A stretch of 64,000 bases of DNA, taken from positions 1,796 through 65,795 of the forward strand of contig DAORND010000008.1 of the NCBI GenBank assembly GCA_035440755.1. The letters run 5' to 3'. Shown here one piece after another: positions 47,285 to 52,687 of the stretch. A program made the position numbers and the translations under genes. Numbering within the stretch: position 1 is the stretch's first letter; the number at the start of each line of letters is the position of its first letter. The notes below the pieces were generated by a model. The model saw nothing but the letters and a program-made list of their open reading frames with translations, was not told where the DNA came from and did no database searches. Source of the DNA: Aquimonas sp. (GTDB lineage: Bacteria > Pseudomonadota > Gammaproteobacteria > Xanthomonadales > Xanthomonadaceae).

Positions 47285-48619
47285 GTGGATTCCAGTCGTA
47301 TACAACCCCGAGTGATTCCGCGACAGGATCACGGGATATCGCGCAAGCAGATCAGCCCGAACGCACTCCGTGTGCTTTACCGCCTCCAGGAGGCGGGCTT
47401 TTCGGCCTATCTCGTTGGCGGTGCCGTTCGTGACTTGTTGGTGGGTGGTTCGCCCAAAGACTTCGATGTGGCTACCGATGCGACGCCGGATCAGGTGCGT
47501 GCGCTGTTTCGCAATTGTCGCCTGATTGGACGCCGCTTTCGTTTGGCGCATGTGGTCTATGGGCCTGAGATCATCGAGGTCGCCACCTTTCGCGCAGGCG
47601 AGGATGATGGCTCGGGTGAACGCGAGATCGAAAACGGCGTGCTGGTCCGCGACAATGTGTACGGCAGCATCGAGGACGATGCCGTGCGGCGCGACTTCAC
47701 CGCCAATGCCCTCTACTACGCGATCAGCGATTTTTCCGTGCGCGACTTTGTCGGCGGTTACGAAGATGTGCAAGCGCGGCGCTTGAGACTCATTGGCGAT
47801 CCTGCAACGCGCTACCAGGAAGACCCTGTCCGCATGCTTCGTGCGGCGCGGCTGTCGGCGAAACTGGGATTCGAGATTGAGTCGGCGACCGCGGCTCCGA
47901 TAGCGACCTTGGGCTTCTTGCTCGAAGGCTCGTCGAGCGCGCGTTTGTTCGACGAGTCTCTGAAGTTGTTCATGATGGGACACGCTGAGCGCAGCTTCGA
48001 GGTGTTGGAAGCGCATGGTCTATTGCCGGTGTTGCTACCCGAACTGGCGAAGGCGCTGTGCAACGATCCGCATGGGCAGTGCCGGTCCATGGTCAGGCTT
48101 GCGTTGGCAATGACGGATGAGCGTGTCGCCGCGGACAAGCCGGTCACGCCCGCATTCCTTTTTGCTGCCCTGCTGTGGCCGGCTTATGCGTCCGAATTGC
48201 ACCATTTGTTGATGTCGGGTGCGGATCTCGCTGTCGCGGAACAACGCGCTGCCGATCGTGTCACCTTGCGACAAACTGATCGGCTAGCCATCCCGAAACG
48301 CTTCACCGTGCCGATGCATGAGATCTGGTGGTTGCAGTCGCGGTTTCCGCTGCGCCAGCGGAAACGCGTCCTCCGGTTGTTGCATCACCCGCGCTTCCGA
48401 GCTGCCTTCGATTTTCTCGAATTGCGTGCCGAGGCGGCCCCGGAATTGACGGATGAGGTCGCTTGGTGGCGTGACGCGCAGTCGGTGGACGTGGATGCGC
48501 TGGTCGAGCGGTTGCAACCGAAAACCGGTCGCAGTGGGTCGCGTGAAGCAGGCTCGGTCAGCGCGCCAACAGGGCGCCGTCGAAAGCCACGGCGTCGGCC
48601 TGCTCCGCCACCAGCATGA
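47285..48619 (+). CDS. pcnB: Poly(A) polymerase I
   Basis: YLVGGAVRDLL..PKDFDVAT, LIGRRFRLAHV, RRDFTANAL, EDPVRMLRA; followed by folK-panB-panC. Confidence 0.96.
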   Translation: MDSSRIQPRVIPRQDHGISRKQISPNALRVLYRLQEAGFSAYLVGGAVRDLLVGGSPKDFDVATDATPDQVRALFRNCRLIGRRFRLAHVVYGPEIIEVATFRAGEDDGSGEREIENGVLVRDNVYGSIEDDAVRRDFTANALYYAISDFSVRDFVGGYEDVQARRLRLIGDPATRYQEDPVRMLRAARLSAKLGFEIESATAAPIATLGFLLEGSSSARLFDESLKLFMMGHAERSFEVLEAHGLLPVLLPELAKALCNDPHGQCRSMVRLALAMTDERVAADKPVTPAFLFAALLWPAYASELHHLLMSGADLAVAEQRAADRVTLRQTDRLAIPKRFTVPMHEIWWLQSRFPLRQRKRVLRLLHHPRFRAAFDFLELRAEAAPELTDEVAWWRDAQSVDVDALVERLQPKTGRSGSREAGSVSAPTGRRRKPRRRPAPPPA

Positions 48620-49119
48620 TGGTGGCGCAGGAAAGGGCGGCGTTCGTTGGAGTTGGAAGCAACCTGGATGATCCGCAAACGCAGGTGGAACGTGCGGTCG
48701 CGGCGCTAGCCGCGATCGATCAATGCCGCGTGCTGGCCGTTTCTGGTTCTTATCAGTCCGAACCGATAGGCAAGCTTGACCAGCCGGACTTCGTCAATGC
48801 CGTGGTAAAGGTGGCAACGACCTTGACACCGTCAGAGCTGCTTGGGCGGTTGCTGGAAATCGAACTTCGTGCAGGACGCCAGCGGCAAGAGCGATGGGGT
48901 CCGCGCGTGCTGGATCTTGATCTGTTGCTGTATGACGACCTGGTGCAGACCTCGGGTGCGCCTATACTCCCGCACCCGAGGATGCATGAGCGGGCTTTCG
49001 TGTTGGTGCCACTGCTCGATATCGCTGCGGATATCCTGATTCCGGGACATGGCACTGTGAACTCCTGCCTGAAGAAGCTTGGACCACAGCGTTTGGTCCG
49101 TTGCGGGCACCCATCCTGA
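48616..49119 (+). CDS. folK: 2-amino-4-hydroxy-6-hydroxymethyldihydropteridine diphosphokinase
   Basis: GVGSNL, QPDFVNAV, RWGPRVLDLDLL, PHPRMHERAFVL.PL. Confidence 0.97.
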   Translation: MMVAQERAAFVGVGSNLDDPQTQVERAVAALAAIDQCRVLAVSGSYQSEPIGKLDQPDFVNAVVKVATTLTPSELLGRLLEIELRAGRQRQERWGPRVLDLDLLLYDDLVQTSGAPILPHPRMHERAFVLVPLLDIAADILIPGHGTVNSCLKKLGPQRLVRCGHPS

Positions 49120-49151
49120 CTTTTTGTTGCTTCTGCACGGATATATCGACG

Positions 49152-49982
49152 ATGTACAGCAGTAAGTCCGAAGTCCCTTCGCGCGCACCGGTCACCGTTC
49201 CCGATCTGCTCAAGATGAAACATGCAGGCAGAAGGATCGTCTGCGTGACGGCCTACGATGCCAGTTTCGCCCGAGTCATGGATCGCGCGGGTGTGGATGT
49301 GGTGTTGGTAGGTGATTCGCTGGGCATGGTCGTGCAAGGCCATACGTCGACCTTGCCAGTTAGCTTGCGCGACGTGTGCTACCACAGCGCGGCGGTTGCG
49401 CGTGGGCTGGCTTCCACCTTGCTGATGGCGGATTTGCCGTTTCAGACCTATGCCTCGCCTGCGCAAGCGCACGCATCCGCGACGCTCTTGATGGCGGAGG
49501 GTGGTGCCTCAATGGTCAAGCTGGAGGGAGCCGGTGTCATCCTCGACAGTATTCATTACTTGTCCGAACGCGACATCCCGGTCTGTGCCCATCTTGGCTT
49601 GACCCCACAGTCGGTGACCCAGTTGGGTGGATTCAAAGTCCAGGGTCGCGATGACATCGCCGCTGAAAAATTGCGACGGCAGGCGCTTGAGGTTCAGCAG
49701 GCGGGTGCATCGCTGTTGGTGCTTGAGTGCATTCCCGCGGCCTTGGCCGGGGAAATTACCGAGGCGCTGACGATTCCGACGATCGGAATTGGGGCTGGCC
49801 CGCTGTGCGATGGCCAGGTGTTGGTCATGCATGACCTGCTTGGGTTGGCAGGTCGCAGCCGTCGCCCTCGTTTCGTCAAGAACTTCCTGCAAGGCAGGGA
49901 TTCAGTGGAAGATGCGTTCCTGGCGTACGCAACGGATGTACGCGAGGGGAGATTTCCTGCCGCGGAGCATATCTACGAATGA
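49152..49982 (+). CDS. panB: 3-methyl-2-oxobutanoate hydroxymethyltransferase
   Basis: TAYDA, LVGDSLGM, VKLEG, HLGLTPQ, IGIGAG..CDGQVLV. Confidence 0.97.
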   Translation: MYSSKSEVPSRAPVTVPDLLKMKHAGRRIVCVTAYDASFARVMDRAGVDVVLVGDSLGMVVQGHTSTLPVSLRDVCYHSAAVARGLASTLLMADLPFQTYASPAQAHASATLLMAEGGASMVKLEGAGVILDSIHYLSERDIPVCAHLGLTPQSVTQLGGFKVQGRDDIAAEKLRRQALEVQQAGASLLVLECIPAALAGEITEALTIPTIGIGAGPLCDGQVLVMHDLLGLAGRSRRPRFVKNFLQGRDSVEDAFLAYATDVREGRFPAAEHIYE

Positions 49983-50833
49983 TCAAGTGCGAGCAACCCT
50001 CTGAGATTCGCAGTCTGGTTAGACGCTGGCAGCTTGACGGCTTGCGTGTCGCCTTTGTTCCCACGATGGGGAACCTGCATGCCGGGCATTTCAGTTTGGT
50101 GGAGTTGGCGCGACGTCACGCAGATCGCGTGGTGACGAGTGTGTTCGTCAATCCGACCCAATTTGGCCCGAATGAAGACTTCGCCCGCTATCCACGGACC
50201 ATCGAGCGCGACGCAGTCGGGTTGGAGGCAGTTGGCAGCGATGCGATGTTCGTTCCCGAGCCGCACGCGCTGTACCCGATGGGGGCGGCGAATGCCGTCC
50301 GCGTGGAGGTTCCTCCGATTGATCGGATTCTCTGTGGTGCCCATCGACCAGGGCATTTTTCGGGTGTGGCGACGGTGGTTTTGCGGCTGCTGCACTGCGT
50401 GCCAGCGGACTGCGCGGTGTTCGGCAGCAAGGATTACCAACAGCTGCAGATCATCCGACGTCTGGTTCAGGATCTGCTGATGCCCGTTGAATTGATCGCG
50501 GGAGCCACCTGCCGCGAGCCTGATGGACTGGCGATGAGTTCGCGGAATCAGTACTTGTTGCCGGACGAGCGTGAGCTTGCGCCCTTGCTCTTCGCCAAGC
50601 TTCGATCCGTCGCATCGGCAGTTCAAATGGGACAACCGGTTGGGGCGGTACTGTCCAATGCACAGGCGGAGTTGACCCGAGTTGGCTTCAGTGTTGACTA
50701 CATCGAGGTTCGCGAAGCCGAGACGCTCGCCGACTGGTATCCCGACGCTCGACGTGGTGTTGCGCTGGTCGCGGCCCGCATTGGCAACACGCGTTTGATC
50801 GACAACCTCGAGTTTGTGCTGACGGAAGACTAG
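49979..50833 (+). CDS. panC: Pantoate-beta-alanine ligase
   Basis: FVPTMGNLHAGH, FVNPTQF, RPGHF.GV, FGSKDYQQ, REPDGLAMSSRN, RLIDN. Confidence 0.97.
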   Translation: MIKCEQPSEIRSLVRRWQLDGLRVAFVPTMGNLHAGHFSLVELARRHADRVVTSVFVNPTQFGPNEDFARYPRTIERDAVGLEAVGSDAMFVPEPHALYPMGAANAVRVEVPPIDRILCGAHRPGHFSGVATVVLRLLHCVPADCAVFGSKDYQQLQIIRRLVQDLLMPVELIAGATCREPDGLAMSSRNQYLLPDERELAPLLFAKLRSVASAVQMGQPVGAVLSNAQAELTRVGFSVDYIEVREAETLADWYPDARRGVALVAARIGNTRLIDNLEFVLTED

Positions 50834-50916
50834 CTGCGACAGCGGACTTGAAGCGGCTGGTGGTGGTTTAGCTACAACACTGTTGTTTTTTTCCAAAACC
50901 CGTTGTAAGCTTGCCA

Positions 50917-51025
50917 CAACTTGAGTGATCCGCGACTTTGGCGCGACCACTCGGTTGCAGCAGGGCGCTGTCAGGTAATTGTCACTCCGTTTAATCCCCG
51001 CAAGGAAGCTTGCGGGGTTTTTTTT
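50917..51025 (+). ncRNA. Candidate trans-acting small RNA (~108 nt)
   Basis: TTGTTT-N17-TAAGCT promoter (50883-50911), 5' hairpin 50917-50957, unstructured middle, terminator with 8 T. No credible ORF. Confidence 0.6.
50996..51025 (+). terminator. Strong rho-independent terminator
   Basis: CCCCGCAAG-GAAG-CTTGCGGGG followed by TTTTTTTT. Confidence 0.92.
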
Positions 51026-51160
51026 GCCTGGAAATTGCGTGTTTTGTTGTTTTTTTGCAACGCATGTTTGCGACGAAACGTCAGCCCAACGAGCTTGTAG
51101 TTGCAAGCGCGCCATCTTCTGGCACTGTGTCGACCTTCCCCGGGCAGCGGACAGGTCGTC

Positions 51161-52687
51161 ATGAGTGCAGCGTTGTTGAACCATTGGGATGCGCTCAAGG
51201 CGCAGGCGGATCGCTTGCTTGCCACTCCACTCGCTGGTCTGGCGTCCGGAGTGGATCACGTTTCGCGTTGCATGCTGACATTGGACAACCTGCATTTTGT
51301 CTTTGCTCGACAGCGCATCGATCAGTCCGCTCTGGAGCGACTGCTCGCCCTGGCGGGTGATGCGGGTGTTCAGGAGAGACTGCAGGCATTGATGGATGGC
51401 GAAACAGTCAACACCACCGAATCGCGGGCCGCCTTGCATTCCGCCTTGCGTTTCGGTGGCGCCACCGGTGCGTCCGCCAAAGAAGCGCGTGCGGCGGCGT
51501 TGGAAGTGCGTGTGCGAATGGAGCTGCTGACTGAACAGCTTGCTGCCAGTGCAGTGACGGACATTGTCAGTGTCGGTATCGGCGGCTCCGATTTGGGTCC
51601 CCGGTTGGTGGTCGATGCCTTGCGTGAACACCACGAAGGTCGTTTCCGCGTTCATTTCATCGGCAATGTCGATGGTAGTGGTGCGCATCGCTTGCTGCCA
51701 ACGCTGGACCCCAAGCGGACGGCGGTGATCTTGGTGTCGAAGAGCTTCTCCACCCAGGAGACGCACCTGAATGGTCAGATTCTGCGGCAGTGGCTAGGCG
51801 ATGACTCGCGCTTCTTCGCGGTGACGTCCAAGCCGCAGGCAGCGGCGGAGATCGGGGTGGCTCCGGAGCGCATCTTGCCCATGTGGGACTGGGTCGGTGG
51901 ACGCTATTCGTTGTGGTCCGCTGTCGGCTGGTCGGCCCGATTGGCCTTGGGGGCGGATCGATGGGATGCCTTGCTGGAGGGCGCGGCGGCTCTGGATGCG
52001 CATGCCTTGAATGCGCCCTTGGCAAAGAATTTACCTGTGCTGCACGGGTTGTTGGCAATTTGGAATCGCAACTTCCTTGGCTATGCCTCGCACGCCATCC
52101 TTCCATATGACGAACGTCTTGGCTTGTTGCCCGATCATCTGCAGCAGGTGGTGATGGAGAGTCTTGGAAAGTCGGTTCGTCACGACGGGACGCCGGTGAC
52201 CTACGAGACGGTGCCGGTGCTCTGGGGTGGAACCGGGACCAGCAGTCAGCACTCCTTTTTCCAAGCGCTTCATCAAGGAACCGAAGTGGTGCCTGCTGAT
52301 TTCATCGGTGTCGTGCGGCCCGATCATCCACATCGCGAAAATCACCAAGCATTGCTGGCCAACTTGCTAGCGCAGATGGAGGCATTGGCGTCCGGCAGCC
52401 AATCCGACAACGCGCATCGTTGCTACGCGGGAGGACGGCCGTCCTCGTTGATCTTGTTGGACAGCTTGGATCCCTATTCCTTGGGAATGCTGCTGGCCTT
52501 GTATGAGCATTCGGTGTTCGTGCAGTCCGTGCTGTGGGGCATCAACGCGTTTGATCAGTGGGGTGTAGAGCTGGGTAAACGTCTAGCCAATGAACTGCTG
52601 CCCGCACTGCGCGGGGAGGGCGAAGCCGGTGACGCGATCAGTCGCGAGCTGGTGAAACTCGTTCGTGGAGTCGCTTTGCGCAGTTGA
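51161..52687 (+). CDS. pgi: Glucose-6-phosphate isomerase
   Basis: VNTTE.RAALH, GIGGSDLGP, VSKSF.T.ET, WVGGRYSLWS, QQVVMESLGK, QHSFFQ..HQG, FDQWGVELGK. Confidence 0.97.
   Translation: MSAALLNHWDALKAQADRLLATPLAGLASGVDHVSRCMLTLDNLHFVFARQRIDQSALERLLALAGDAGVQERLQALMDGETVNTTESRAALHSALRFGGATGASAKEARAAALEVRVRMELLTEQLAASAVTDIVSVGIGGSDLGPRLVVDALREHHEGRFRVHFIGNVDGSGAHRLLPTLDPKRTAVILVSKSFSTQETHLNGQILRQWLGDDSRFFAVTSKPQAAAEIGVAPERILPMWDWVGGRYSLWSAVGWSARLALGADRWDALLEGAAALDAHALNAPLAKNLPVLHGLLAIWNRNFLGYASHAILPYDERLGLLPDHLQQVVMESLGKSVRHDGTPVTYETVPVLWGGTGTSSQHSFFQALHQGTEVVPADFIGVVRPDHPHRENHQALLANLLAQMEALASGSQSDNAHRCYAGGRPSSLILLDSLDPYSLGMLLALYEHSVFVQSVLWGINAFDQWGVELGKRLANELLPALRGEGEAGDAISRELVKLVRGVALRS

Follow-up and report, generated by a model that had tools for sequence, protein, structure and literature searches.

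Does the spacer between panC and pgi in Aquimonas serve only to end the upstream operon, or does it hold a small RNA gene with a function of its own? The question was raised by a sequence-only reading of a stretch of 64,000 nt (the window) from contig DAORND010000008.1 of assembly GCA_035440755.1 (genome G000; 3.3 Mb, 61 % G+C, 94.7 % complete), which proposed, at 50883–51025, a small RNA (about 108 nt) that has a promoter and a terminator of its own. Every element described in that proposal exists at this location. The relevant features of the locus, with positions in the window, are the following.

49979–50833, + strand: panC, pantoate-beta-alanine ligase (Pfam PF02569, E = 5e-96)
50881–50898, no strand assigned: TGTTG-N8-CAAAA element, which overlaps the -35 (TGTTG-N8-CAACA in relatives)
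50883–50888, + strand: -35 hexamer TTGTTT, whose T.G positions are kept ~17 bp ahead of the -10 across 58 sequences
50906–50911, + strand: -10 hexamer TAAGCT (family consensus GTGG-TAnnnT, extended -10 type)
50918–51025, + strand: predicted RNA of ~108 nt, its start inferred from the -10 and its 3′ end being the U-tract
~50918–50956, + strand: 5′ stem loop (SL1), fold kept and sequence clade-variable
50961–50967, + strand: invariant box 1, CAGGGCG, kept by 95 % or more of 58 distinct sequences
50973–50989, + strand: invariant box 2 and candidate seed, AGGUAAUUGUCACUCCG; UCACUCC at 50982–50988 is universal and anti-Shine-Dalgarno-like
50996–51025, + strand: intrinsic terminator of a 9 bp stem, a 4 nt loop and U8 (scan and covariation)
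51045–51062, no strand assigned: second palindrome-like element, TGTTGTTTTTTTGCAACG, past the terminator and ahead of pgi, shared with the two closest relatives
51161–52687, + strand: pgi, glucose-6-phosphate isomerase (Pfam PF00342, E = 2e-139)

Promoter, fold and invariant core

The RNA gene site is the panC–pgi spacer. Upstream lie the co-oriented genes pcnB, folK, panB and panC, with panC as the last (Pfam); downstream, the pgi ATG at 51161 is 135 nt past the U-tract, and pgi is followed in the window by a convergent queG (Pfam). The upstream genes (47285–50833), of which pcnB encodes poly(A) polymerase I, overlap or are closely packed on one strand. A terminator scan of the window returned no credible terminator between the panC stop and 50996. 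Given that the terminator of the RNA is the first credible one after pcnB-folK-panB-panC, the RNA may double as the 3′ end of a transcript that includes pcnB, and the terminator probably ends pan operon transcripts as well. Its stem (50996–51017) consists of nine pairs, seven of them G-C, and is followed by T8 at 51018–51025, as had been proposed.

The proposed promoter is likewise in place, with TTGTTT at 50883–50888, a 17 nt spacer and TAAGCT at 50906–50911. A generic sigma-70 promoter scan of the window did not call it, because it is a weak match to TTGACA/TATAAT; the case for the RNA is therefore built on its relatives and not on the window alone. The promoter is credible because the same arrangement of a -35 and an extended -10 is conserved in 58 related sequences. 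Anchored on the -10, these sequences give the consensus T.Gcttt, ~17 bp, ctGTGG-TAnnnT and then a CAAC/CCAC start region, where the anchoring itself selects TAnnnT but has no bearing on the GTGG and T.G positions.

In many lineages, including L013, L138, L144, L143 and L152, one to three phased copies of a palindrome, TGTTG-N8-CAACA, are found upstream of or overlapping the RNA promoter. The copies are ~21–22 bp apart and recur at offsets of -25, -47 and -67/-76 from the -10. The palindrome has the same TTG-N8-CAA geometry as CRP/FNR-family boxes. Intergenic regions of G000 contain 41 such sites versus 10–28 for scrambled palindromes (1.5- to 4-fold more), and the genes adjoining the sites in this genome have no common functional theme.

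From predicted start to U-tract, the 109 nt RNA has a folding energy of -44.9 kcal/mol (z = -3.98 versus shuffles). The 5′ hairpin of the earlier proposal is present at ~50918–50956 and by itself forms a single closed hairpin of -14.7 kcal/mol. This fold is kept despite clade-specific sequences: 35 of 39 homologues fold here as one closed hairpin (mean z = -2.8) that ends 2–3 nt before CAGGGCG, yet SL1 has no conserved sequence and its outer stems are wholly different between clades. Structural conservation is also evident at the terminator, which covaries. In the family alignment 97.2 % of its cells are paired, eight of the nine pairs have changed on both sides and 121 cells are compensatory, against at most 64 % of cells paired in slid controls; as the alignment was fitted to the model, these values lean towards structure.

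Between the two hairpins lies a region holding GCAGGGCG (50960–50967) and AGGTAATTGTCACTCCG (50973–50989). Across 58 distinct sequences aligned to the model, CAGGGCG, GU and C.UCACUCC are kept in at least 95 % of rows, and the CACUCC motif that the sequence-only reading had singled out proves to be the best-conserved block of the whole family. PanC proteins adjoining the RNA are 47–57 % identical, a much looser constraint than that on the RNA core. Within the window, GGTAATTGTCACTCCG at 50974–50989 is the sole match to itself at up to two mismatches. The core reads AGGUAAUCGUCACUCCG in most lineages and GGUACAUCACUCC in families f6 and f7. UCACUCC corresponds to the anti-Shine-Dalgarno sequence CACCUCC minus one C.

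The middle of the RNA had been described as single-stranded. The motif region is present, but it is not cleanly unpaired, with a predicted mean unpaired probability of 0.45 for the seed. The full-length minimum-energy fold of the G000 RNA sequesters the seed, and RNAalifold proposes a pairing of CAGGGCG with CGUCACUCC, neither side of which varies. In the 5′ arm of SL1, GAGUGAU (50923–50929) complements both its hairpin partner and the seed AUUGUCACUC (50979–50988). This complementarity is confined to the subclade of G000, G002 and G005 and is not conserved elsewhere; pairing of this kind may be a self-inhibitory alternative structure.

A small ORF at 50921–51100 was considered and rejected. 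Relatives differ in spacer length by indels other than multiples of three and share no conserved start codon; the region is therefore non-coding. The family keeps promoter-like elements, the folded 5′ domain, the invariant middle and a terminator that covaries, and the discrete non-coding unit proposed for this spacer is borne out.

Distribution and gene neighbourhood

A BLAST search with the spacer found its 3′ half in 9 of the 10 same-genus genomes and in genomes of four further genera. With a covariance model (R1) built on the core and terminator, the 3′ half of the RNA, 92 of 151 genomes across the order were matched, ~85 of them over the full length; most families of the order carry the RNA. 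Matches are present in all genomes of families f2 (8/8), f4 (4/4) and f5 (2/2), and in most of f3 (16/17), f6 (14/17), f8 (14/15) and f11 (15/17). Family f12 has ten matches, six full-length and four to the terminator only. Weak full-length matches in f2, f6, f7 and f12 were read individually and proved to be genuine homologues whose core has diverged. Dokdonella, Rudaea, and Rhodanobacteraceae and Lysobacterales metagenome-assembled genomes (MAGs) are among the named carriers. A 16-mer scan of genome contigs gave mostly chance hits among the matches listed.

Among 150 other families of the class, one real homologue was found, the remaining matches being terminators after 5S rRNA. This homologue (L175; G178:C169:11229-11307), in a MAG of another family of the class (62 % complete, 1.5 Mb), contains GGGTAATCGTCACTCCG and the terminator. 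The family of this RNA may thus extend a little past the order.

Searches of the window's own family did not find the RNA in the genomes resembling Xanthomonas, Stenotrophomonas or Xylella. These genomes have a different spacer after panC, followed by overlapping panD and pgi. At the Xanthomonas-, Stenotrophomonas- and Xylella-like loci L180–L184, the panC–panD spacer ranges from ~90 to ~900 nt, with long inverted repeats in two genomes, and ends in a conserved extended -10-like TGCTAGAAT or GCTAAACT directly upstream of panD; the overlap between panD and pgi is ATGA.

Two points go beyond the sequence-only reading. The first is the tight, order-wide linkage to panC: in 50 of 52 loci the core and panC share a strand and are 120–170 nt apart, with the core downstream. 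The second is that panD or pgi starts 38–90 nt past the U-tract in many relatives, which raises the alternative of a leader acting in cis (see below). A search for PanD (aspartate 1-decarboxylase, PF02261) in 10 Aquimonas genomes, which do have panB and panC, found no copy and leaves the genus without an obvious source of beta-alanine. In related families panD sits right after the RNA.

Possible modes of action

We consider it probable that the RNA is a trans-acting, base-pairing sRNA with an anti-Shine-Dalgarno-like seed that also terminates the pan operon. Its own promoter, together with a terminator common to the pan operon, would make it a 3′-end-linked sRNA. Transcription would start from a sigma-70-type promoter within the panC–pgi spacer (TTGnnn as the -35, ~17 bp of spacer, and an extended -10 that reads GTGG-TAnnnT in the family and TAAGCT here) and would stop at the strong intrinsic terminator, which would end both the RNA and read-through transcripts of the pan operon. 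The clade-variable 5′ hairpin and the terminator hairpin would then frame ~35 nt with CAGGGCG and (A/G)UCACUCC. Acting in trans, UCACUCC, lengthened by GGUAAUCG in most lineages, would pair with ribosome-binding sites of the GGAGUGA type and lower translation. With a U-rich tail and an A/U-rich stretch ahead of the terminator, the RNA would be a suitable Hfq ligand; an hfq gene is present in G000 (PF17209, 102.6 bits), and no ProQ was detected in this genome. With a core of ~30 nt frozen across the order, the partner of the RNA must be strongly constrained.

The genome-wide search for targets covered one whole genome, G000, and was narrower than an exhaustive search of the CopraRNA type. Its lists of duplexes and exact complements are dominated by Shine-Dalgarno-like sites, and the duplex energies of the seed across G000 are barely above those of shuffled seeds, some of which do no worse. 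The ribosome-binding sites of the three best housekeeping candidates, recG, hemB and lpdA, match the seed in G000, and the match is lost in relatives (30 for each gene), even within the genus. No cis targets were found within ~60 loci. Across 151 genomes, a 20-mer complement at up to three mismatches was found in the RNA gene itself and at ~30 other places versus ~15 for a reversed-pattern control, so that the other matches are roughly chance-level. A few bipartite GGAGTGA...CGCCCTG matches (the era/recO junction, secY and an amidohydrolase) were judged to be chance and rejected. Two further observations stand against the trans-acting reading: the candidate seed is only ~45 % unpaired in predicted ensembles, and the short distance from the U-tract to panD or pgi in many lineages fits a cis leader at least equally well there.

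Such a leader or attenuator is the main rival, and the two are not mutually exclusive. Here the promoter would drive a leader whose terminator gates panD and/or pgi, and the invariant stretch would bind a protein, metabolite or other factor. In keeping with this, pgi follows in the same orientation in 43 of 52 loci, and panD is directly downstream of the RNA in f4, f5, f6, f8, f10 and f11, with gaps of 38–57 nt in several; the 38 nt gap in G034 leaves little room for a separate panD promoter. Additionally, the same spacer in Xanthomonas-like genomes holds the promoter of a panD–pgi unit. A leader, however, should always have a gene downstream on its own strand, and this is not the case: in three lineages the RNA, its promoter and its terminator are intact before a convergent gene (murB in L143, queG in L144 and L016). 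The RNA therefore needs no co-oriented gene downstream, which weakens the cis-leader reading; most other loci do have panD or pgi downstream. A promoter-like -10 separate from that of the RNA is also seen past the terminator, ahead of the next gene, in several clades (f3, TATACT; Aquimonas, TGCTAGGCT; f5, TGGTAGAAT). No conserved antiterminator pairing was seen by eye in 58 aligned sequences, where the invariant blocks do not track the variable terminator arms. The overall pattern is moreover opposite to that of a typical aptamer, with variable stems and an invariant linear stretch. On balance we regard a purely cis-acting role as unlikely.

A bolder proposal, which we rate as improbable, is that the RNA represents a regulatory class of a new kind, linked to genes for pantothenate and central carbon metabolism. 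The RNA could be a read-through gate for panD/pgi that also acts in trans, or it could mimic the 16S rRNA 3′ end (AGGUAAUCG-UCACUCC) and so titrate either Shine-Dalgarno sites or a factor that recognizes the end of the rRNA; both forms would be controlled by a regulator sitting on the phased TGTTG-N8-CAACA sites.

The mimicry can also be taken by itself, the RNA then being a protein-binding or decoy RNA in which AGGUAAUCG...UCACUCC imitates the 16S rRNA 3′ end and titrates a factor that recognizes this end, or acts as a sponge, with no pairing to mRNA. The likeness is to the conserved 16S rRNA 3′ end with helix 45 removed (AAGGUAACCG ... GAUCACCUCC). The invariant stretch is unusually long, no conserved mRNA complement was found, and the f6 and f7 block CAUCACUCC is closer still to AUCACCUCC, all of which would suit a decoy. 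The resemblance is nevertheless short and was noticed after the fact, and anti-Shine-Dalgarno-like seeds are common among ordinary base-pairing sRNAs. The 16S 3′ end is not in the G000 assembly. A decoy role appears very unlikely.

Equally hard to credit is that the spacer is merely a structured 3′ UTR and terminator of the pan operon, stabilizing or terminating its mRNA with neither independent transcription nor a regulatory function of its own: the constant same-strand position after panC and the lack of another terminator after panC in the window would fit, but a terminator does not need ~30 invariant nt kept order-wide while the neighbouring protein falls to ~50 % identity, nor a conserved -35 and extended -10 at a fixed distance upstream, and Xanthomonas-like genomes end or continue the operon without the RNA.

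The RNA offers a good entry point to post-transcriptional regulation in this order, and a clean addition to RNA family databases. To our knowledge, almost no small RNAs have been characterized in the order outside Xanthomonas; its members include Rhodanobacteraceae, Dokdonella, Rudaea, Aquimonas and many environmental lineages. The position between panC and panD/pgi, and the absence of the RNA from Xanthomonas-like genomes, where panD occupies the site, suggest a testable link between synthesis of the coenzyme A precursor, entry into glycolysis and RNA-based control.

Relation to known small RNAs

Whether the RNA belongs to a known family had been left to an Rfam search, and zero families matched. 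In the window, at E values up to 10, the best Rfam 15 scores were 18–21 bits against gathering thresholds of 39–50, and no family passes; the families failing the threshold include sX/asX/Xoo, ErsA/Pseudomon-1, NsiR1, anti-hemB and the pan motif. The two Rfam matches over the RNA for which alignments were shown cover mostly the terminator. The homologous loci of 13 relatives gave zero Rfam 15 matches at E values up to 0.1. A full-text literature search with the core sequence and for Xanthomonas and Lysobacter sRNAs returned no match; absence of the RNA from Xanthomonas-like genomes is probably why the Xanthomonas sRNA literature holds no counterpart.

The sX/Xoo families of Xanthomonas (sX1–sX15) are small RNAs of the same order, and the sequence-only reading had suggested the comparison; none of the sX, asX or Xoo models in Rfam matches the RNA described here. 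The sole sX-family match in the window is asX3 (19.8 bits), which lies inside panC. sX13 acts through C-rich loops, whereas the present RNA has no such loops. The published sRNA table of Xcv (PMC3300014) gives coordinates only, and by position sX5 or sX7 may still be the same RNA. For L. enzymogenes, an Hfq study states that no sRNA had been identified or characterized in the strain earlier and predicts 3,931 putative sRNAs (PMC12492646).

The pan RNA motif (RF01749) is also non-coding and tied to pantothenate biosynthesis genes, and gave no cmscan match here. It is a bulged-A stem located upstream of pan genes in other phyla. The present RNA, by contrast, is downstream of panC and has an architecture unlike that of the pan motif.

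With type I 3′-UTR-linked sRNAs such as DapZ and MicL, the RNA shares its location at the 3′ end of an operon, in this case a biosynthetic one, a terminator in common with the mRNA, a position fixed relative to the upstream gene (50 of 52 loci) and a separate promoter, predicted in the present case. The promoters of DapZ and MicL are inside coding sequence, whereas the predicted promoter here is in the spacer past the stop codon. The rho-independent terminator with a long U tail that marks Hfq-type sRNAs is present as well (9 bp stem, U8).

In function, the RNA would most resemble sRNAs of the CyaR type with anti-Shine-Dalgarno-like seeds. CyaR (RyeE) of Enterobacteriaceae uses a conserved anti-Shine-Dalgarno-like CACCUCC to occlude ribosome-binding sites. 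Both RNAs are ~90–110 nt in length, with their own sigma-70 promoter (predicted in the present case), a 5′ hairpin, an intrinsic terminator and a long U tail. They differ in bacterial order and genomic context and have no sequence or covariance-model similarity; likewise, the upstream operator is TGTTG-N8-CAACA here and a CRP box for CyaR. Judged by its sequence and by these comparisons, the RNA is best described as a new family, uncatalogued in Rfam 15, of an already known type of sRNA.
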